Shown: one piece after another, positions 5,286 to 20,000 of the stretch
Layout: the number at the start of each line of letters is the position of its first letter
Numbering within the stretch: position 1 is the stretch's first letter
Sequence record: DRR378314_1813
Reading direction: 5' to 3' (one strand)
Length of the DNA stretch: 20,000 bases
Position numbers and translations under genes: made by a program
Notes under the pieces: generated by a model
Database searches by the model: none
Told to the model about the DNA's origin: nothing
What the model saw: the letters and a program-made list of their open reading frames with translations, nothing else

Positions 5286-6047
5286 ATGGCGAAGAAAGCC
5301 AATAAGCAAAGTGTTGAAAAAGTCGTCAAGAAAGTGAACAAAGAGTTCGACAAAACATCGTCTCAGATCGAAAAGCTGATTAACGATGCCCTCAAGCAGT
5401 TCGACAGCCTGCAGAACCAGATTCAAGAGCCGGTCCGCAAGCTGCTGAAGGAAGTGGACGAGCTTCGTGACCGCGAAATGAAGCGGTTCAACGAAGAGTT
5501 CGAGCGTCGCTTGGGTGAGTTTCATGAATTGCAGAACAGCATCCTGGATCGCCTCGGCATTGCCAGCAAGGAAGCCAAGGAAGAAGTAAAGAAAGCTGCG
5601 GATCAAGCGGCCAAGAAGACCCCGAAAAAGTCCGCTCCGAGCAAGACAACGGCTAAGAAGCCAGCCGCTAAGAAAGCCGCACCCGCGAAAAAGGCCACAA
5701 CGGCCAAGAAATCTCCAGCGCCGAAGAAAGCCGCCCCAGGCAAAGCGAGTGCCACCGCCAAAAGCCCGGCTGCCGCGGCCAAAGCCGCTCCCAAAAAAGC
5801 GACGACAACGACCCGTACTGCGCGGAAACCGGCTGCCGCAAAGGCTGCTCCGAAGCCGAAGGACAAGAGCGATCTCACTCTGGTCAAAGGCATTGGGCCC
5901 GCAACCGCCCGCAAGATGAAAGAAGCAGGCATCACCTCGGTCGACCAGATCGCGAATCCGTCTGACGCGGATAAGGAAAAGCTAAAGGCGTTTTCAAACG
6001 TGAAAGGTTTTAGCACCTTCAGCGAAGAAGCCAAGAAAGTTACTTAA
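5286..6047 (+). CDS. Coiled-coil + Lys/Ala/Pro-rich histone-H1-like linker + C-terminal helix-hairpin-helix protein
   Basis: AAGGAG SD. Residues about 1-105 are helical and charged; central KKPAAKKAAPAKK-type repeats; C-terminal DLTLVKGIGPATARKMKEAGITSVDQIA is a typical HhH motif. Confidence 0.8.
   Translation: MAKKANKQSVEKVVKKVNKEFDKTSSQIEKLINDALKQFDSLQNQIQEPVRKLLKEVDELRDREMKRFNEEFERRLGEFHELQNSILDRLGIASKEAKEEVKKAADQAAKKTPKKSAPSKTTAKKPAAKKAAPAKKATTAKKSPAPKKAAPGKASATAKSPAAAAKAAPKKATTTTRTARKPAAAKAAPKPKDKSDLTLVKGIGPATARKMKEAGITSVDQIANPSDADKEKLKAFSNVKGFSTFSEEAKKVT
5590..5862 (+). repeat. Low-complexity K/A/P/T-rich coding repeats (KKAAP/KKPAA-like)
   Basis: Degenerate peptide repeats such as AKKPAAKKAAPAKKATTAKKSPAPKKAAP in the translation. 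Confidence 0.75.
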
Positions 6048-8323
6048 TGCAATCACCCGATCAGCCTGTTTTACGGGACATTGTCCTGATTGGCGGCGGA
6101 CACAGCCACGTAGGCGTTCTCAAGCGCTTTGCCATGAACCCGGTGCCTGGTGTCCGCCTTACCCTTATCTGCAGAGACACCCATACGCCCTACTCCGGCA
6201 TGTTGCCCGGCTATGTGGCCGGGCACTATTCCTACGACGACGTCCATATCGACCTGAGCAAACTGGCGGAGTTTGCGGGTGCGCGGTTCTATCGCGATGA
6301 AGTTGTGGGCATAGACCGCGATCGCAAACGGGTAATCTGCCGTTCCCGGCCAGACGTGCCCTACGACATCCTGTCCGTGAACATCGGCTCCGCTCCCCGG
6401 GTAGGCGACGTCAATGGTGCCGCCGACCATGCCGTGCCCGTCAAGCCGATCAATGGCTTCAACAACCGATGGCTGTCGCTCCTGTCGCGGCTGGAAAACC
6501 ATGAAGGCCCGATGACGGTTGCGGTGGTCGGTGCGGGTGCGGGCGGCGTTGAACTGACCCTGGCCATGCAGTTCCGCCTACTAAACGAGCTCCAGAAACG
6601 AGGCCACGACCCGGATCAGTTGCACTTCCATTTGTTTGATGCGAACCAGCAGATCCTGCCCACCCATAACAGCAAAGCACGTGCAGTATTTGTGGAAACG
6701 CTCGCAACCCGCGGTGTGAAAGTGCACCTGGGATCGGCGGTCTCGTTGGTGGAAGCGAATCGATTAACGACCGAATCCGGCGACACCCTGACGGTCGATG
6801 AGGTTCTTTGGGTCACCCGGGCCGGCGGCCCTGATTGGCTGCAGGATACCGGCCTTGCGCTGGATGACGGTGGCTTTATACGGGTAGCGGATACCCTTCA
6901 GACGGAGACCGACGACGACATTTTCGCGGCGGGCGACATCGCCAACGTCGTTAATCACCCTCGCGAAAAGGCCGGCGTGTTTGCAGTGCGCCAAGGCCGC
7001 CCCCTGGCGGACAACCTCAGGCGCCATGCCCTGGGCAAAACGACCAAATCATTTAAGCCGCAGAAGAAATGGCTGGCGCTGATCAGTACCGGTGACAAGT
7101 TTGCGGTGGCCTCCCGTGGCGAATTTTCGGTGGCCGGAAGATGGGTCTGGCGCTGGAAAGACGGTATTGATCGGCGCTTTATGGCGAAGTTCAATGATCT
7201 CCCCGCGATGGAAGAAAATGCCGCCCTGCCCGACACCGGTGCCGCACAGAACCCCGAAGAGGCATCACAGGCCATATCGGCGGTCGCAATGCGTTGCGGG
7301 GGCTGCGGCGCCAAAGTCGGCAGTACCGTACTGTCACGAGCGTTGGGCGAGTTGCGGCCCATTGAGCGGGACGACATCCTTATTGGACTGCACGCACCCG
7401 ACGACGCGGCGGTACTGACCGTCCCACCTGGCAAAGCCGTGGTTCATACCGTGGACTTTTTCCGTGCCTTTATTGACGACCCCTATGTGTTTGGCCGGGT
7501 GGCTGCGAATCACGCACTGGGCGACGTATTTGCCATGGGCGCCGAGGCACAGAGCGCCACCGCGGTTGCGACCGTGCCCTACGGCATTGAATCCAAGGTG
7601 GAGGACGTGGTTTACCAGATGATGTCCGGCGCCGTGGAAGCGCTCAATGAAGCTGGCTGCGCGCTGGTGGGCGGCCACACGGGTGAAGGCCGGGAACTGG
7701 CCCTGGGCTTTGCGGTTAACGGGCTGATTGATCCGGACGAGGTGATGAGCAAGGGCGGCTTACGGGCTGGCGATGCTCTCCTGCTGACCAAACCCATCGG
7801 CACGGGCACCCTGTTCGCTGCCCACGCCAAGCTCGCAGCGAAGGGCCGCTGGATTGATTCCGCCCTTGCCTCCATGATGCAGTCCAACAAAGAGGCAGCC
7901 CAGTGTCTGCGCCGCTATGGATCAAGGGCATGCACTGACGTGACCGGCTTCGGTTTGCTCGGCCACCTGGTGGAGATGACCCGGCCGTCCGGCGTTGATG
8001 CAGAGCTGGATCTCACGGCGATTCCGATTCTGCCCGGCGCAGAAGAAACAGCGGCAGCGGGTATTCTCAGTTCACTGCAACCTGCCAACATTCGCCTGCG
8101 CCGTGGTATCCGTGACCAGGAGAAGTGGGTCAGGCACCCGCGCTATCCTTTGATCTTCGATCCGCAAACGGCTGGTGGCCTGTTGGCCAGCGTGCCCGCC
8201 GACCAGGCCGATGCCTGTGTCGAAGAGTTGAAGGCATTGGGTTACCCACACACCGCCATTATTGGGCGTGTGTTGCCCCAGGACGAAAGCGGGCCGGTTG
8301 AGCCCATCACGCTTCGGGACTGA
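6047..8323 (+). CDS. selD: Selenide, water dikinase (selenophosphate synthetase) fused to an N-terminal FAD/NAD(P)-dependent pyridine nucleotide-disulfide oxidoreductase domain
   Basis: N-terminal Rossmann motifs IVLIGGGHSH and VVGAGAGGVE, YSGMLPG and IFAAGD. C-terminal SelD motifs CGGCGAKV, DDAAV, TVDFF, FGRVAANHALGDVFAMG, GGHT, LTKPIGTG, TDVTGFGLLGHL and DPQTAGGLL. Confidence 0.93.
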   Translation: MQSPDQPVLRDIVLIGGGHSHVGVLKRFAMNPVPGVRLTLICRDTHTPYSGMLPGYVAGHYSYDDVHIDLSKLAEFAGARFYRDEVVGIDRDRKRVICRSRPDVPYDILSVNIGSAPRVGDVNGAADHAVPVKPINGFNNRWLSLLSRLENHEGPMTVAVVGAGAGGVELTLAMQFRLLNELQKRGHDPDQLHFHLFDANQQILPTHNSKARAVFVETLATRGVKVHLGSAVSLVEANRLTTESGDTLTVDEVLWVTRAGGPDWLQDTGLALDDGGFIRVADTLQTETDDDIFAAGDIANVVNHPREKAGVFAVRQGRPLADNLRRHALGKTTKSFKPQKKWLALISTGDKFAVASRGEFSVAGRWVWRWKDGIDRRFMAKFNDLPAMEENAALPDTGAAQNPEEASQAISAVAMRCGGCGAKVGSTVLSRALGELRPIERDDILIGLHAPDDAAVLTVPPGKAVVHTVDFFRAFIDDPYVFGRVAANHALGDVFAMGAEAQSATAVATVPYGIESKVEDVVYQMMSGAVEALNEAGCALVGGHTGEGRELALGFAVNGLIDPDEVMSKGGLRAGDALLLTKPIGTGTLFAAHAKLAAKGRWIDSALASMMQSNKEAAQCLRRYGSRACTDVTGFGLLGHLVEMTRPSGVDAELDLTAIPILPGAEETAAAGILSSLQPANIRLRRGIRDQEKWVRHPRYPLIFDPQTAGGLLASVPADQADACVEELKALGYPHTAIIGRVLPQDESGPVEPITLRD

Positions 8324-9287
8324 GCCTGGCAGCGGCAAAGGCCTGTTCAATGGCCGCCAACAAGGCAGCCTGTTCCGCTTCCGGGGTGAAACAACCGGCG
8401 AGCTCGGTAACGCGAGCCGTCAGTTCTCGGAGAAACCCGGGGGATGTTTCCGCTCGCTGTAATACCTCGGCGAGATCGGCTTCATCACCTACTTTGAAGT
8501 ACCCGGGATAATCATCGCCCAGGAGCCCGATGTTACCGGATATATCCGATGCAATGACCGGCAGGCCCGCACGGCAGGCTTCCGACACAACGTTGGCACC
8601 GCCCTCCATGACCGAACTGATCACCATGGCGCGGGAGCGCCCCATCAGTTGTTGGATGCCAGCCTTATCGACTTCTCCTAACCACTGGAAGCGGGGGTTG
8701 GTGGCCTGCTCATCCAACGCACAGGTTGCCCACTCTGGCGTATGCGCCATACCGGCATTGATGACGTGTAGGGTAGACGTCGCGGGCAGATGTCTCACTG
8801 CCAATGAGGCACGGAGCGGGTCTTTCTCACCCCTCAGATGGCCGATGACACAAACGCCAAACCCGCTGGCGCTGTCCGCTGTCTCTCTAATTGGCTGTTC
8901 GGCGGATTGAAGCACGGTCACCAGCTTGGCGACGAATGACTTTGGGATATCACGGGCAACCCGATGATGGAGCCCGATCAGGCAATCGGCCAGGGCCATT
9001 GAATTGAGGGTTTGTTCCGGATAGCGGTACTGGTAGTCATAGATATCGGTGCCCGTAAGCACGACAATCAATGGCGTTTCCGGGTTCAGGTCTCGGAAGC
9101 GCGCCACAGCTTCGTGACTTCTCCAGGCGTGTAGCGCGATAAATAGGTCACAGGACTCATCGGTGTATTCGGTAAGCAGAGACACCAGGTGCCCCATGTT
9201 CTGAAGCAGCAGACGCCAACGCTCCGCTGTTGCCCTGTTCCCAGCTTTAGACCCCGGCTGTGCAGGCGTGATTAATGCTATTTCCAT
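8307..9287 (-). CDS. senB: Selenosugar synthase SenB-family GT-B glycosyltransferase (TIGR04348-like)
   Basis: Family-typical motifs ITPA...GNRATAERW, ALHAWRS, VLTGTDIY, VIGHLRGEKDP, SSVMEGGANVVSEA and GNIGLLGDDYPGYF; adjacent to selD. Confidence 0.88.
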   Translation of the reverse strand: MEIALITPAQPGSKAGNRATAERWRLLLQNMGHLVSLLTEYTDESCDLFIALHAWRSHEAVARFRDLNPETPLIVVLTGTDIYDYQYRYPEQTLNSMALADCLIGLHHRVARDIPKSFVAKLVTVLQSAEQPIRETADSASGFGVCVIGHLRGEKDPLRASLAVRHLPATSTLHVINAGMAHTPEWATCALDEQATNPRFQWLGEVDKAGIQQLMGRSRAMVISSVMEGGANVVSEACRAGLPVIASDISGNIGLLGDDYPGYFKVGDEADLAEVLQRAETSPGFLRELTARVTELAGCFTPEAEQAALLAAIEQAFAAARLSPEA

Positions 9288-9364
9288 CGTTACAGGTGCC
9301 CGTAAAGATTTTCTTTTTTAGAGGGAGATCCATAACCTGTTTAGATCAGGGAATCGTATAGCTG

Positions 9365-9393
9365 TTCAGAGTTGAGGTAAATCACGGTATTCT
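9365..9393 (+). promoter_or_regulatory. Possible sigma70 promoter for the ABC importer operon
   Basis: TTCAGA (9365-9370), 17-nt spacer, TATTCT (9388-9393); each box matches consensus 4/6. Confidence 0.35.
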
Positions 9394-9462
9394 GAGTCGT
9401 CTCGAGCTTCTTGCTCGCTTACTGACTCCGTTCAACCCCAGATCAATCACAAGGAAACTCAA

Positions 9463-10332
9463 ATGTTACTGAATCTTATACGGAAATTGGCTGCCAGTAG
9501 CCTCCTGATGTTTATAGCTTCTGCCACGGTTTCTGCCCAAACGCTCGTGTTCACAGCCATTCCGGATGAAGATGAAACCAAATTGGTAGAGCGCTTCAAG
9601 GGTATTGCTGATTACCTGACGGAAGAACTGGACGTGGACGTGCGCTATATTCCGGTAAAGTCCTATGCTGCGGCCATTTCAGCGTTTCGTAACAATCAGG
9701 TCCAGTTGGCCTGGTTTGGTGGGCTTTCCGGTGTTCAGGCCCGGGAACTGGTCCCTGGCTCACAAGCAATCGCACAGGGCGTGGAAGATCAGGCATTCAA
9801 CTCCCATTTTATCGCTCATAAAAGTACTGGACTCGATGAAATGGAGAACCTGTCTGACGAGCTACGAGGTAAAACCTTCACGTTTGGCTCCAAGGGCTCT
9901 ACGTCCGGTCGTCTGATTCCCGAGTACTACATCCGCGAAGCCTTTGGGGAAAGCCCGGAAGACGTCTTTGGCCGTGTTGGTTTCAGTGGCAACCATACCC
10001 GCACGCTTCGTCTCGTTGAGGCTGGCACCTACGACGTAGGTGCGATCAACTATTCGGTGTGGAAGAAAGAAATGGAAAACGGCAATATCGATACCGACGC
10101 CGTTAAAGTCATCTGGACGACGCCTGCCTACCCCAACTACCAGTGGACCATCCGCGGCGACGTCAATGAACGATTCGGCGAAGGGTTCTCAAAGCGAGTT
10201 CAGGAAGCCCTGCTGGCAATGGATGATCCGGCACTCCTGGAGAGCTTTCCTCGTAGCGGGTTCATTCCGGTTTCAAACGATGCCTATGAGCCAATCAGGG
10301 TTGTTGGCAAGCAAATCGGAATCATCGATTAA
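9463..10332 (+). CDS. PhnD/PtxB-family ABC periplasmic binding protein, putative selenium-oxyanion subfamily (TIGR04553-like)
   Basis: Signal peptide ending VSA-Q; FTAIPDEDE, SYAAAI, QLAWFGGLSGVQAR, oxyanion loop GSTSGRL, GFSGNH, YPNYQW; AAGGAA SD; located beside selD/senB. Confidence 0.85.
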   Translation: MLLNLIRKLAASSLLMFIASATVSAQTLVFTAIPDEDETKLVERFKGIADYLTEELDVDVRYIPVKSYAAAISAFRNNQVQLAWFGGLSGVQARELVPGSQAIAQGVEDQAFNSHFIAHKSTGLDEMENLSDELRGKTFTFGSKGSTSGRLIPEYYIREAFGESPEDVFGRVGFSGNHTRTLRLVEAGTYDVGAINYSVWKKEMENGNIDTDAVKVIWTTPAYPNYQWTIRGDVNERFGEGFSKRVQEALLAMDDPALLESFPRSGFIPVSNDAYEPIRVVGKQIGIID

Positions 10333-10982
10333 TGCCTGGGTTTAATCTGGCTGGCCTGACAGCTTCATTTGGCGGAGAGCGGGTTATCGGCCCGCTCTCC
10401 CTGAGTGTCAAGGAAGGTGAGAAAGTTGGTCTTGTGGGCCGTAGCGGCGCCGGTAAATCAACGTTGATCCGGCTGATCTATCAGCAAGTCGAAAGGCTGG
10501 CCTCTCTCGTTCCGCAAGACCTTGGGCTGGTAAATGCGCTCCCGGTGTTCCATAACATTTTCATGGGGCGCCTGGATGCACACAGCACCTGGTACAACAT
10601 TATTACTCTGATGCGACCGTTTTACAGGGACAGCCACGACGTGAAAGAACTTCTGTCAGAACTGGGGATGTCGGAGAAAGTATGGATTCCAGCCGCGTCC
10701 CTGTCTGGTGGCCAGCGACAACGAGTGGCCATTGCGCGGGCCCTTTACCGGAACTCCGGTCTCTTGCTCGCTGACGAGCCGGTGTCTGCGCTGGATGGCC
10801 CCATGGCCCACCAGACAATGAGGTTGCTGGATGCGCGTTTCCAAACCAGCGTGGTTGCACTCCATGATGTCGAACTCGCGCTGAAGTATTGCACTCGTAT
10901 CGTGGGCATCCAGGACGGCCAAATCGCACTGGATGAGCCCAGCGCAAAGCTCTCCCCGGCCGATATTGCGCCGCTCTACTGA
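10332..10982 (+). CDS. ABC transporter ATP-binding subunit, PhnC-like
   Basis: Walker A GRSGAGKS, Q-loop VPQ, signature LSGGQRQR, Walker B LLADEP, H-loop ALHD. TAATG overlap with the upstream gene. Confidence 0.9.
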   Translation: MPGFNLAGLTASFGGERVIGPLSLSVKEGEKVGLVGRSGAGKSTLIRLIYQQVERLASLVPQDLGLVNALPVFHNIFMGRLDAHSTWYNIITLMRPFYRDSHDVKELLSELGMSEKVWIPAASLSGGQRQRVAIARALYRNSGLLLADEPVSALDGPMAHQTMRLLDARFQTSVVALHDVELALKYCTRIVGIQDGQIALDEPSAKLSPADIAPLY

Positions 10983-10995
10983 CCCATAAACCTCT

Positions 10996-12462
10996 ATGTT
11001 GTCGTCGCCGACCGTAAGAACCAGCCTGATCTTCACCGCTATCGCCCTGATAGGTCTGGTCTTTGCGGATATCGCCATTACCGCCGCAAATCCCTGGAAA
11101 GACCTGGGGCGGTTTTTTCTCGGTGTTGTTACCCCCGACTTCTTTAGCACCGAAGGACTCGCCACCGCCCTGCTCCGAACCGTCGCCTTTGCTTTCGTAG
11201 GCGTGGCCCTGGGAAGTATCTGTGGGTTTCTGCTGTCCCTTGTTTACCGAGCCTGGCCGGTGCGGATTTTCTGCGCTTTTGTACGTGCCATCCACGAACT
11301 CTTCTGGGCGCTTATTTTCCTCCAATTTTTCGGTTTCCATCCGCTTACCGGGGTGTTGGCAATCGCGATTCCCTATTCCGGTATATTTGCCAAGGTCTAT
11401 TCAGAGATCATTGATGAAGCTGACCCCGAACCAGGTCGGTTGCTGCCGCCCCGCACCAGTGCGATAGCTGCGTTTATCTATACCAAGATTCCCGATTGCT
11501 GGGTCCAACTACGCACCTACACGGCTTACCGGCTCGAGTGTGGTCTCCGCTCCAGTGCAATTCTTGGCTTCGTCGGTCTTCCCACTCTTGGGTTCTATCT
11601 GGAGTCAGCGTTTTCCCAGGGCCACTATTCCGATGCCGGCGCCATGCTGATTCTTTTCTACGTCCTGATCGCGACCATGCCGCTTTGGGTCAAGCCCAAA
11701 CTGCTGCCCGTGTATGTGATCGCCGCGCCGTTTTTCCTAGGTGAAGGGCTGCCCATCGTCTGGGGTAATGTCACCCGGTTCTTTACACAGGATATCGTAC
11801 CATCGCCGTTGCGCGGCGAAGAAGGCTGGTCCGGCATGGGCGCCTGGTTCGGAGACATGTTTGTCAATCAGGCGCTGCCAGGTATCTTCAATACGGTGGT
11901 TCTCACACAGATTGCACTTGTCGCGACGGGGCTGATTGCGTTGCTCGCATTCCCATTGATTTCCACCCACTTCGGAGGGCCCGTGCGCCGTACCTCCGGG
12001 CATGTTTTCCTGGTGATCATGCGTTCCACCCCGGAATACATCCTGGCCTACATCCTGTTGCAGTTATGGGGGCCCTCCATGTTGCCAGCCGTGGTTGCGC
12101 TTGCGCTCCACAACGGCGGCATTATCGGCCATCTGATCGGCCGACAGTCCAGCACCATTCAGCTACGGCCAGACGCACCGACGGGTCTCAATCGATACAC
12201 CTACGAGCTAGTGCCAAGAGTCTATCGTTCGTTCCTCGCTTTTCTGTTTTACCGTTGGGAAATCATCATGCGGGAAACCGCCATTCTCGGCATACTGGGC
12301 ATCTACACCCTTGGATTCTATGTCGACAGTGCCATCCAGAACATCCAGTTTGATCGCGCCATGGTTCTGATCCTGATTACCGCCTCCCTGAATATCGGCG
12401 TCGATGTGCTGGGCCGCTTTATCCGTCGGAAGCTCGCCCTTCAGACCATGCCAACCTGCTAG
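10996..12462 (+). CDS. ABC transporter permease with two fused PhnE/PtxC-like domains
   Basis: Two homologous hydrophobic halves: RAIHELFWAL...YRLECGLRSSAILGFVGLPTLG and RSTPEYILAY...YRWEIIMRETAILGILGIYTLG. Confidence 0.88.
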   Translation: MLSSPTVRTSLIFTAIALIGLVFADIAITAANPWKDLGRFFLGVVTPDFFSTEGLATALLRTVAFAFVGVALGSICGFLLSLVYRAWPVRIFCAFVRAIHELFWALIFLQFFGFHPLTGVLAIAIPYSGIFAKVYSEIIDEADPEPGRLLPPRTSAIAAFIYTKIPDCWVQLRTYTAYRLECGLRSSAILGFVGLPTLGFYLESAFSQGHYSDAGAMLILFYVLIATMPLWVKPKLLPVYVIAAPFFLGEGLPIVWGNVTRFFTQDIVPSPLRGEEGWSGMGAWFGDMFVNQALPGIFNTVVLTQIALVATGLIALLAFPLISTHFGGPVRRTSGHVFLVIMRSTPEYILAYILLQLWGPSMLPAVVALALHNGGIIGHLIGRQSSTIQLRPDAPTGLNRYTYELVPRVYRSFLAFLFYRWEIIMRETAILGILGIYTLGFYVDSAIQNIQFDRAMVLILITASLNIGVDVLGRFIRRKLALQTMPTC

Positions 12463-17281: not shown

Positions 17282-18748
17282 ATGAGAGATACAAAGAAAC
17301 AACGCCGGCAACTGGAAAAGCAACTCACCCAAGCCGTTTCCTACAAGGAGTGGCTCGCCGCTGCCACGCAACTGGACGAGCTGGAAGGCACCCTTGCCTG
17401 GCGGGAAGAGGACGGCTGCGAATTGCTCCACGAGGCCCTGATTCGCGACCACATCACGTCGATGAAGCGCTGTCGGGAAAAGGGCGACACCCGGGCGCTA
17501 ACGCGTGTGTTGCAGGAGAGCCTTTACCGCCACCTCGGCGAGATCGCCAACCCCGATCTTTACGCCATCGCCTGGAGCGGCACCAAGACCCTCGTGAGCG
17601 ATTTTCTGGATGAAGTGGAACGTTCCATGAACGTCATCTGCGACAATCCCATGCCAGGCGTGTCGGACCACCAAAAACTGCGCCTGTTTCGGGACGCCGA
17701 GCGTGTATACGGCCGCCCTGCACTCATGCTTAGTGGTGGGGCCGCTTTCGGTATCTACCACATCGGTGTTACGCGTGCGCTCTGGCGGGAAGGCCTGCTC
17801 CCCGACGTGATTGCCGGCTCCAGCATGGGTGCGATTGTGGCCGGGGCCATCTGCACACGGAACAACCAGGAACTGGAGCGCTTTTTCAATGAACCCGGTG
17901 AGATTCACCTGGACGCCTTTCGCTGGCTCGAACCCAAACGCATCTGGCGAAAACGCCATGCCATGGATCAATCCCAGCTGCTCCAGCATATTCGCACCAA
18001 CATCGGCAGCACTAGTTTCCTCGAGGCCGCCGAGCGCAGCGGGCGAACCCTGAACATTTCCGTATCGCCTACCCGTACCCGCCAGAAGCCCCGCTTGTTG
18101 AACAACCTGGCCTCGCCCGAGGTGCTGGTGGATTCCGCCATCCTGGCATCCTGTGCGGTACCCGGTATCTACCCGCCAGTGACACTCCAGTCACGGGATG
18201 GCGACCGGGGCAAGGACGGTGCCAAACCCTACATGCCGACGGAACGGTGGATCGACGGCAGCGTGCATGGTGACTTGCCGCTGATGCGCATGGCCCGGTT
18301 GCACAACGTTAATCGCACCATCGTCAGCCAGGCAAACCCCCATGTATTGCCCTTTATCAGCCATCATCACCAGCGCGGGCCCGGTGCCTCGGCCAAACAG
18401 GCCGCCGCCTCGCTGATGCATGCCCAGGTAGCCACCACGCTGAAGCTCACCCGCAACAGCTGGTCGTCAACGATACTGCGGCCCTTGCTGGAGCAGGCCC
18501 ATGCCATGGCCACGCAGACCTATCTCGGGGACATCAACGTCCAGTTCCCGTTCAAGCCGCTGCTGTATCGCAAGATTCTCTCCAATCCCAACAAGGAAGA
18601 CCTGGACATGTTCATACGGCTTGGAGAGCGGGCCACCTGGCCGAGAATGGCCATGATTCGCGACCAGACACGCATCAGCCGTACCTTCAGCGATTGTATC
18701 GCCCGACTCGAGAAAACCTGTGCCGCCAACGACAACGCAGCGGAGTAG
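17282..18748 (+). CDS. DUF3336 + patatin-like phospholipase (TGL3/4/5- and SDP1-like lipase)
   Basis: N-terminal SYKEWLAAATQLD...AWR (DUF3336-like); oxyanion motif LSGGAAFG, nucleophile GSSMG, ASCAVPG, catalytic DGSV, IVSQANPH. Confidence 0.88.
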   Translation: MRDTKKQRRQLEKQLTQAVSYKEWLAAATQLDELEGTLAWREEDGCELLHEALIRDHITSMKRCREKGDTRALTRVLQESLYRHLGEIANPDLYAIAWSGTKTLVSDFLDEVERSMNVICDNPMPGVSDHQKLRLFRDAERVYGRPALMLSGGAAFGIYHIGVTRALWREGLLPDVIAGSSMGAIVAGAICTRNNQELERFFNEPGEIHLDAFRWLEPKRIWRKRHAMDQSQLLQHIRTNIGSTSFLEAAERSGRTLNISVSPTRTRQKPRLLNNLASPEVLVDSAILASCAVPGIYPPVTLQSRDGDRGKDGAKPYMPTERWIDGSVHGDLPLMRMARLHNVNRTIVSQANPHVLPFISHHHQRGPGASAKQAAASLMHAQVATTLKLTRNSWSSTILRPLLEQAHAMATQTYLGDINVQFPFKPLLYRKILSNPNKEDLDMFIRLGERATWPRMAMIRDQTRISRTFSDCIARLEKTCAANDNAAE

Positions 18749-19754: not shown

Positions 19755-20000
19755 ATGGAAATCAAAGTTAATTTTCTCGAAAACCTCAGGCTTGAAGCCA
19801 AGTTTGACGATTTCACCGTGGTCACGGACCAGCCCATTCGCTATAAAGGCGACGGCTCGGCCCCCAGCCCGTTCGACTATTTTCTGGCGTCGTCGGCGCT
19901 CTGCGCGGCGTACTTTGTGCGGGTTTACTGCAAGGCAAGGGACATTCCCACGGAAAACATCCGCCTGTCCCAGAACAACATCGTCGACCCGGAGAACCGC
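19755..20000 (+). CDS. OsmC-like domain protein, most likely the 5' end of an OsmC/YcaO fusion (TIGR03549-like); runs off the window
   Basis: Not in the ORF track. Manual translation from ATG 19755 gives MEIKVNFLENLRLEAKFDDFTVVTDQPIRYKGDGSAPSPFDYFLASSALCAAYFVRVYCKARDIPTENIRLSQNNIVDPENR with no stop. It has the OsmC-like D.P...G...P.P...L....C motif. Confidence 0.82.
   Translation, partial: MEIKVNFLENLRLEAKFDDFTVVTDQPIRYKGDGSAPSPFDYFLASSALCAAYFVRVYCKARDIPTENIRLSQNNIVDPENR

Follow-up and report, generated by a model that had tools for sequence, protein, structure and literature searches.

A 20,000-nt stretch of DNA from sequence record DRR378314_1813 (hereafter the window) carries five contiguous genes whose products may import an oxyanion of selenium, reduce and activate it, and attach it to a sugar. 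The question raised by this locus is what becomes of the selenosugar. A preliminary description of the DNA had considered an unlinked SenA/OvsA-like consumer, an unknown acceptor yielding a new selenometabolite, or the sugar itself as the end product.

Organization of the locus and the enzymes of selenium activation

The five genes were present as open reading frames (ORFs) at the coordinates given below, and profile matches confirmed the names assigned to them in the preliminary description (an oxidoreductase-SelD, a SenB-like glycosyltransferase and a PhnD/C/E-like importer). senC (6047..8323, plus strand) and senB (8307..9287, minus strand) are convergent, tail to tail, with a 17-nt overlap of their 3' ends, and senB is divergent from the ABC transporter operon. 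Because senB is on the minus strand, the five genes do not constitute one co-directional operon. Among the 18 flanking ORFs scanned, there was no match to an FGE-fold synthase, SelA, SelB or SelU, and tblastn with an OvsA query found nothing in the 20-kb window; a sulfoxide/selenoxide synthase is thus absent nearby, as had been described. No tRNA was found in the window, and no Rfam family matched in it.

Flanking proteins showed 74-93% identity to those of Marinobacter loci and were encoded in the same order, with DNA identity at the locus of only 76-78% relative to these relatives. The order of the five genes was kept in nine Marinobacter loci (L001-L008 and L012; for L006 also in its list of ORFs) and partially in another (L013), and was also found in a Rhodospirillales MAG (L009). 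Such conservation of gene order indicates that the juxtaposition is not due to chance.

SenC (758 aa) is a fusion protein. The N-terminal part (approximately residues 11-382) is an FAD/NAD(P)H pyridine-nucleotide-disulfide oxidoreductase of the NADH-dehydrogenase-like type, and the SelD part spans approximately residues 415-747. The protein scored 515 bits with TIGR03169 ('Nterm_to_SelD', cut-off 310) and 302.6 bits with TIGR00476 (selD, cut-off 125), matched the domains Pyr_redox_2, AIRS and AIRS_C, and stayed below the cut-off of TIGR04369 ('fusion_not_SelD', 480 vs 700). In its active-site loop, C417-G-G-C420-G-A-K423, residues C420 and K423 occupy the positions of Cys17 and Lys20 in the alignment with E. 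coli SelD (3U0O). With a model score above the cut-off and both equivalents present, the protein belongs to the selD/SenC family; judged from the function of that family and the motifs, its SelD domain probably makes selenophosphate. SenC was 82-86% identical to the fusions of Marinobacter. The Ndh-SelD fusions reported from marine bacteria (Romero et al. 2005, PMC1273633; Zhang and Gladyshev 2008, PMC2398784) share with it the NADH-dehydrogenase-like N-terminus and a SelD part whose loop contains CxxC, a motif given as typical of such fusions (PMC2398784); relative to these accounts, the window protein shows no notable difference. In all five genomes with the closest SenB, the fusion was the only selD over the cut-off, and SelU was encoded in 5/5 and SelA in 0/5 of them. 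Very likely, SelD of the window also feeds synthesis of tRNA 2-selenouridine.

SenB (326 aa), a GT-B Se-glycosyltransferase of the selenosugar synthase family, matched TIGR04348 with 400.1 bits (cut-off 300) over residues 3-314, which places it in that family, and scored 153 bits with the structures of Variovorax paradoxus SenB (VpSenB; 8JJQ and 8FBX). All 10 functional residues of VpSenB were identical in the alignment. K155 corresponds to the catalytic Lys158; N17, T20 and E228 to N20, T23 and E231, which serve the sugar donor; E236 to the ribose-binding E239; and H53, R56, T78, T80 and R152 to H58, R61, T83, T85 and R155 of the selenophosphate pocket (roles in VpSenB from PMC10891094). The window protein has the motif EGGANV in place of EGGAHV. 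The core of the preliminary description, activation of selenium by SelD and formation of a selenosugar by SenB, therefore holds up at the level of protein families and conserved residues, from which both activities are predicted.

The best identity of SenB to any protein in the collections searched was 76%, and that to the five closest genomes 72-76%. Identities of only 61-63% to the first loci compared, at which neighbouring proteins showed 84-92%, had raised the possibility that senB is a replaced or odd copy. This was rejected: across the family, identities of SenB range without a break between 55% and 76%, so SenB is simply fast-evolving.

Between senB and the ABC transporter genes there is a divergent intergenic region (9288..9462). 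In a MAFFT alignment of the window and five related loci (both anchors were found in five of the nine tried), some 44 nt (9351-9394) stood out as a block conserved across species between variable flanks. On this basis, the region is presumed to be a promoter/operator; a scan for consensus promoters found nothing in it.

The consumer of the selenosugar in related genomes

We profiled 263 genomes of the family of Marinobacter (hand tally, with a best E <= 1e-115 required for the synthase). SenB exceeded its cut-off in 183 of them; SenB and a synthase of the SenA/OvsA type occurred together in 171 genomes, SenB only in 12, the synthase only in three and neither in 77. The synthase was thus present in 171/183 SenB-positive genomes, nearly always unlinked to senB, although relatedness within one family means that these co-occurrences do not count as independent. 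In G001, a syntenic relative, senB and ovsA were 1.74 Mb apart, and in G213 they were 1.48 Mb apart; in other relatives the two genes were on separate contigs.

That the window's genome possesses neither OvsA nor SenA, with the selenosugar serving for storage or detoxification or being passed to an unknown acceptor, is very unlikely. Its points of support are the lack of a synthase within the 20-kb window, seven SenB-positive family genomes without a full-strength synthase match, and the reported accumulation of SeGlcNAc in a delta-ovsA mutant (Kayrouz et al. 2024, PMC11030361). A few relatives (G104, G113 and G206) also combined an intact senB with a frame-disrupted ovsA. However, we examined five of the 12 genomes with SenB only (the other seven, G123, G149, G158, G170, G183, G218 and G263, are mostly small assemblies), and all five carried the synthase gene in pieces, two split at contig ends and three with frame changes. 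Furthermore, ovsA and ovsM were both present in 5/5 genomes with the closest SenB, and in this family ovsA is normally unlinked. The profile gave no positive support to a new selenometabolite or to the sugar as end product. The idea of a selenosugar lacking a consumer does not hold up.

The relatives instead show an unlinked OvsA together with OvsM, which agrees with one of the options in the preliminary description. The synthase of G001 scored 667 bits with the OvsA structure 8U41 vs 189 bits with the SenA structure 8K5I, and that of G213 scored 637 bits vs 172 bits. The OvsA-type residues YPFMSTLQF and TYRQAY were found in 9/9 synthases of relatives. All five genomes in which SenB was closest to that of the window encoded OvsM (TIGR04345), and in at least four of them its gene adjoined ovsA. 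Of 10 genomes of relatives tested, nine had OvsM; G001 gave no OvsM match at E <= 1e-10.

These results bear on a second alternative, in which a true SenA acts on hercynine and senA and egtD lie elsewhere in the genome, a split selenoneine pathway. The synthases of the relatives do pass the NCBIfam SenA model, which was exceeded in 164/263 family genomes; one member (G063) has a 513-bit match beside one of 441 bits, and an NHISS gene is located directly beside senB in four loci outside Marinobacter (L009, L010, L011 and L014). However, by solved structures and by motif the relatives' synthases are of the OvsA type, and EgtD, the enzyme that supplies hercynine, was detected in 0/5 genomes with the closest SenB, as opposed to OvsM in 5/5. 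The window itself has no NHISS and does not represent a sen cluster. In the senA-senB-senC cluster of V. paradoxus, as reported by Kayrouz et al. (2022, 10.1101/2022.04.13.486033), the chemistry of SenB and SenC is alike, and the catalytic residues of SenB are conserved in the window; unlike that cluster, the window has no adjacent senA and its senB and selD genes are convergent and overlapping, and its relatives have no egtD and possess OvsA in place of SenA. Production of selenoneine is thus very unlikely. The scores of 422-432 bits lie just over the cut-off of 420, so automatic annotation would designate these OvsA proteins as selenoneine synthases and predict the wrong product.

As OvsA is encoded elsewhere on the chromosome in related genomes, the locus is most probably part of the known ovoselenol pathway in pieces, with ovsA and ovsM, judging from the relatives, at other sites in the genome. 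The importer would bring in an inorganic oxyanion of selenium, and the oxidoreductase domain of the fusion may help reduce it to selenide, from which the SelD domain would make selenophosphate. SenB would transfer selenophosphate to UDP-GlcNAc, giving 1-seleno-GlcNAc, as shown for homologues with the catalytic residues conserved here. The selenoxide synthase OvsA would then consume the selenosugar, selenylating histidine at C5, and OvsM would N-methylate the product to the antioxidant ovoselenol. The genes for these last steps are expected outside this locus, the arrangement seen in M. vinifirmus and in each of the close relatives examined.

The separated arrangement of senBC, ovsA and ovsM in Marinobacter is already published (PMC11030361). 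According to that report, ovs genes are found mostly in Marinobacter and accompany one another even though they are chromosomally separated, e.g. in M. vinifirmus, and most organisms with ovs genes have no egtD. M. vinifirmus has the same senB and senC cassette and belongs to the same bacterial group as the window, and the separation of its ovsA and ovsM from senBC matches the relatives of the window (OvsA 637-667 bits to 8U41). In contrast, senB, senC, ovsA and ovsM are clustered in Halomonas utahensis (PMC11030361). The collections searched contain no close representative of the window's species (best SenB identity 76%, DNA 76-78%). In all likelihood, the window derives from a chromosome of the Marinobacter type and bears the part of the ovs pathway in which selenium is acquired and the selenosugar formed, and the locus mainly adds one species to the published arrangement.

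The importer and its cargo

The PhnD-type periplasmic substrate-binding protein (9463..10332, plus strand) scored 419.1 bits with TIGR04553, 'putative selenate ABC transporter substrate-binding protein' (cut-off 250), and belongs to this family, the name of which is a guess based on context ('hypoth_equivalog'). The PhnC-like ATPase (10332..10982, plus strand, 216 aa) matched ABC_tran with 86 bits and TIGR02315 with 160 bits, under the cut-off of 266, and was 70-77% identical to its counterparts in Marinobacter loci. The permease (10996..12462, plus strand, 488 aa) matched TIGR01097 (PhnE) in two stretches with 195 bits, under the cut-off of 217, and was 81-87% identical to its Marinobacter counterparts. 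A look-up of the binding protein in the ESM Atlas returned 'putative selenate/phosphonate binding protein' clusters from Pseudomonadota only.

The nearest solved structures to the binding protein were those of picocyanobacterial PhnD1, from Synechococcus and Prochlorococcus (7S6G, 239 bits; 5LQ5, 206 bits), and a representative close to PhnD1 scored 344 bits with TIGR04553, the family to which the window protein belongs. The window protein has most of the ligand-contact residues described for the PhnD1C1E1 system (Shah et al. 2023, PMC10284923); by hand mapping, eight of 11 pocket/lid residues are identical. PhnD1 binds phosphite best (Kd 1.7-2.8 uM) and phosphate more weakly (26-88 uM), and according to the main text of that paper it was characterised with phosphorus ligands only. 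The phnD1 gene is reported beside tesA, not selD, in contrast to the binding-protein gene of the window, which is located in a selenium locus.

Accordingly, the transporter might be a phosphate/phosphite importer that adjoins the selenium genes without serving them, with selenium entering otherwise. The kinship with PhnD1 points in that direction, as does the presence of the binding protein in 227/263 family genomes, which makes it commoner than SenB. We consider this unlikely. The binding-protein gene adjoins the Ndh-selD fusion whether senB is present or not (e.g. in the SenB-negative genomes G079, G234, G236 and G237), and the protein occurred in 224/240 selD-positive vs 3/23 selD-negative genomes, a hand tally over related genomes that is weak evidence. 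A putative selenate transporter has been noted near many sen clusters (Kayrouz et al. 2022), and the PhnD1 paper does not use the string 'selen' in its main text.

One difference in the pocket is Asn in the window protein in place of Asp203 of PhnD1. We rejected it as a sign of specificity for selenate: among 18 SelD-linked proteins of the family, 11 have Asp and seven have Asn, and the position is polymorphic among cyanobacteria too.

Selenite, like phosphite, has three oxygens arranged in a pyramid. The hosts of PhnD1 also possess an Ndh-SelD fusion together with ybbB (PMC1273633). Expression of PhnD1 is constitutive and independent of phosphorus, and phosphite, its preferred ligand, is a compound that the hosts are incapable of using, which the authors term a paradox (PMC10284923). 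We tentatively propose that all members of TIGR04553, among them PhnD1 of Prochlorococcus and Synechococcus, could be importers of selenite feeding the shared Ndh-SelD, with phosphite bound by mimicry; this is possible rather than probable. We found no report in the literature of PhnD1 tried with selenium or tied to selenite import (for the PhnD1 screen, in its main text). If these proteins do import selenite, the kinship of the importer with picocyanobacterial PhnD1 could bear on the acquisition of selenium by the most abundant phototrophs of the ocean.

The selenium cassette and its surroundings

Five contiguous genes for selenium uptake, activation and glycosylation had been claimed in the preliminary description; ORFs and family models recovered all five at the same coordinates, and only the strand of senB had to be corrected, to minus. 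The selD fusion gene (6047-8323, +; 758 aa) matched TIGR03169 'Nterm_to_SelD' at 515 bits (cut-off 310) and the selD model TIGR00476 at 303 bits (cut-off 125), and its score on the 'fusion_not_SelD' model, 480, fell short of the 700 required there. senB (8307-9287, -; 326 aa; 400 bits on TIGR04348, cut-off 300) is convergent with the fusion gene, with a 17-nt overlap, and divergent from the ABC operon. The latter consists of a substrate-binding protein gene (9463-10332, +; TIGR04553 'putative selenate ABC transporter substrate-binding protein', 419 bits, cut-off 250), a PhnC-like ATPase gene (10332-10982, +) and a permease gene with two PhnE-like stretches (10996-12462, +). Between senB and the operon, a block of about 44 nt (9351-9394) is nearly invariant across five related loci amid otherwise variable intergenic sequence; it may serve both divergent transcription units as operator or promoter.

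The alignment of window SenB with the structures of V. paradoxus SenB scored 153 bits. The ten SenB residues reported as important in catalysis, in the choice of sugar donor and in the binding of selenophosphate (N20, T23, H58, R61, T83, T85, R155, K158, E231 and E239; PMC10891094) were all kept in the alignment, as N17, T20, H53, R56, T78, T80, R152, K155, E228 and E236. The loop of the SelD domain reads C417-G-G-C420-G-A-K423, with C420 and K423 aligned to Cys17 and Lys20 of E. coli SelD; all Ndh-SelD fusions are reported to have this CxxC form (PMC2398784). Family membership and these conserved residues support the predicted formation of selenophosphate by SelD and of a 1-seleno-sugar by SenB.

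Eighteen flanking ORFs in the window were scanned. They encode a chemoreceptor, a GNAT/nitrilase-fold protein, an Ala/Lys/Pro-rich helix-hairpin-helix protein, an ABC-2 exporter, an enoyl-CoA hydratase, a patatin-like protein, an EamA transporter and the start of an OsmC/YcaO protein; several had no family match. No FGE-fold synthase, SelA, SelB or SelU was found among the 18, and tblastn with an OvsA gave no match to the window, which bears out the absence of these genes near the cassette as first described. No tRNA and no Rfam family was found in the window.

Three of the flanking genes showed further features. The gene at 5286-6047 (+), encoding a coiled-coil and Ala/Lys/Pro-rich protein with a C-terminal helix-hairpin-helix, overlaps the start codon of the selD fusion by its last base, and the same 1-nt overlap occurs in L006, a locus in a complete Marinobacter chromosome; conservation of its product is confined to the C-terminal ~92 aa, and a link to selenium is not evident. 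The patatin-like phospholipase gene (17282-18748, +) has no counterpart in the related Marinobacter loci, where its neighbours are conserved, and is probably an insertion in the lineage of the window. The start of an OsmC-domain/YcaO-domain protein (19755-20000, +; TIGR03549) weakly matched the 'OsmC-related (seleno)protein' model, below the cut-off of that model.

A SenB scan of species-representative genomes yielded 14 loci, 10 of them from Marinobacter, and the ORF order of L006 mirrors that of the window. Window proteins are 74-93% identical overall to those of the Marinobacter loci (selD fusion 82-86%, permease 81-87%, GNAT/nitrilase 91-93%), with SenB at 61-63% only. Across the 263 genomes of the Marinobacter family set, identity to window SenB forms a continuum from 55% to 76%, so SenB is fast-evolving and the window copy is no outlier; SenB is far less conserved than the adjoining selD fusion and permease (81-87%). 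Because the closest loci reach only 76-78% DNA identity, the species of the window is absent from the genomes compared.

The importer and its kinship with PhnD1

The nearest solved relatives of the window binding protein are the PhnD1 proteins of Synechococcus MITS9220 (7S6G, 239 bits) and Prochlorococcus MIT9301 (5LQ5, 206 bits), with the phosphite binder PtxB far behind (112 bits). PhnD1 has a higher affinity for phosphite (1.7-2.8 uM) than for phosphate (26-88 uM), yet strains with PhnD1 did not grow on phosphite and the genes were not induced by phosphorus starvation, which the authors called paradoxical (Shah et al. 2023, PMC10284923). The string 'selen' does not occur in the main text of that paper, whose ligand list is in the supplement, and our literature search found no report connecting PhnD-type proteins with selenite. 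In the alignment, the window protein keeps 8 of the 11 PhnD1 pocket and lid residues and differs at three (T65 to S, S123 to G, D203 to N). D203 to N was considered as a sign of specificity and dropped, since the position varies in the Marinobacter family (D in 11 and N in 7 of 18).

All 10 representatives with 43-56% identity to the window binding protein passed the TIGR04553 cut-off. One of them, P0013, scored 346 bits to 7S6G and 344 bits on TIGR04553, which places the PhnD1 clade within, or right beside, the 'putative selenate' family. In Prochlorococcus and Synechococcus, SelD is reported to be extended at its N terminus by an NADH-dehydrogenase-like region, and ybbB is also present (PMC1273633).

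Among the 263 genomes, the binding protein was over its cut-off in 227 and selD in 240; by hand tally, 224 had both, 3 the binding protein only, 16 selD only and 20 neither. The genomes being related, this co-occurrence is weak evidence. The binding-protein gene adjoins the Ndh-selD fusion also where SenB is missing (G079, G234, G236 and G237), so the importer goes with SelD and not with the selenosugar. Many genomes in this family have a stand-alone SelD (~350 aa, ~430-450 bits) besides, or in place of, the Ndh-SelD fusion (~760 aa, ~305 bits); the complete Marinobacter chromosome G001 carries both.

A synthase gene elsewhere in related genomes

In five syntenic Marinobacter genomes, an unlinked open frame of 459-467 aa encodes an FGE-sulfatase-domain protein; that of G001 scored 432 bits on the NCBIfam SenA model, narrowly over the cut-off of 420. 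SenB was over its cut-off in 183 of the 263 family genomes and the SenA model in 164, with many more just under. With best E <= 1e-115 (our own threshold) taken as presence of the synthase, a hand tally from the SenB and SenA tables put SenB and the synthase together in 171 genomes; 12 had SenB alone, 3 the synthase alone, and 77 lacked both.

It had been proposed to look for senB-bearing genomes without a synthase. At this threshold they number 12 of 183, and in all five inspected the synthase gene was present in pieces: split over contig ends in G221 and G166, and in adjacent pieces in differing frames in G104, G206 and G113 (1, 1 and 2 frame changes). The others (G123, G149, G158, G170, G183, G218 and G263) are mostly small assemblies. 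Loci L031 (G104), L033 (G113) and L030 (G206), with 1, 2 and 1 frame changes, combine a broken ovsA with an intact senB; these may be natural ovsA-null strains, expected to build up SeGlcNAc, or the breaks may be sequencing errors.

The synthase gene lies at most ~150 bp from senB in eight genomes (G022, G023, G024, G026, G027, G030, G259 and G260) and ~0.8 kb away in G235; elsewhere in the family it is unlinked, 1.74 Mb off in G001 and 1.48 Mb in G213. In the non-Marinobacter loci L009, L010, L011 and L014, the gene for the SenA/OvsA-type synthase (NHISS) adjoins senB directly. Of the preliminary description, the activation and selenosugar genes stand, but a true lack of the consumer is improbable, since relatives carry the synthase (171 of 183 SenB-positive genomes), nearly always unlinked to senB. 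Judging from these relatives, the consumer would be absent from the locus only because it is encoded elsewhere, which is normal and published for Marinobacter.

OvsA and the predicted ovoselenol pathway

The synthases of G001 and G213 scored 667 and 637 bits to 'Selenoxide synthase OvsA' (PDB 8U41) vs 189 and 172 to SenA (8K5I). The two enzymes are told apart by a composite motif, ...HYYN(F/Y)(F/Y)R in SenA vs ...HYMQAYR in OvsA (Kayrouz et al., PMC11030361). YPFMSTLQF and TYRQAY, which are wild-type OvsA residues in the 8U41 alignment and are altered in the variant entry 8UX5, occurred in 9/9 synthases checked in the relatives. Five genomes have the SenB closest to that of the window (G072, G051, G213, G229 and G124). 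OvsM (TIGR04345) was found in all five, its gene adjoining ovsA in at least G072, G051, G213 and G229, and EgtD was found in none. From the OvsA scores and motifs, the presence of OvsM and the failure to find EgtD, these relatives are predicted to make ovoselenol, not selenoneine. In the same five genomes SelU was always found and SelA never, and the fusion was their sole selD over the cut-off; the fusion SelD probably also serves 2-selenouridine.

Two Marinobacter OvsA genes, at L022:1456-2859 (-) and L042:6-1478 (+), encode proteins with 637-667 bits to 8U41 and 422-432 bits on the SenA model NF041186 (cut-off 420). Being just over this cut-off, they would be annotated automatically as selenoneine synthase SenA, implying the wrong product. 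G001, which holds L006, L022 and L039, has senB, the selD fusion and ovsA; TIGR04345 was unmatched there at E <= 1e-10, whereas OvsM was found in nine other relatives tested. Its pathway may end at 5-selenohistidine or use another methyltransferase. G063 has two synthase matches: the stronger scores 513 bits on the SenA model, well beyond every other, and the second, at 441 bits, resembles the OvsA group. Enzymes of both the selenoneine and the ovoselenol type may thus be encoded in this genome.

M. vinifirmus is a reported ovoselenol producer whose delta-ovsA mutant builds up SeGlcNAc, and egtD is missing from most of these ovoselenol-pathway organisms (PMC11030361). A putative selenate transporter has been noted close to many sen clusters (2022 preprint, 10.1101/2022.04.13.486033), and ABC_peri_selen is among the genes co-encoded with NHISS (2026 paper, PMC13674229). 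Judged by gene context, the ABC system would import a selenium oxyanion and the oxidoreductase domain of the fusion would have a reductive role. The SelD domain would supply selenophosphate to SenB for a 1-seleno-sugar, which the published mutant indicates to be SeGlcNAc; as in the relatives and the literature, an unlinked OvsA would use this sugar, and OvsM would act next. On this reading, the locus would represent an already known system in one further species.
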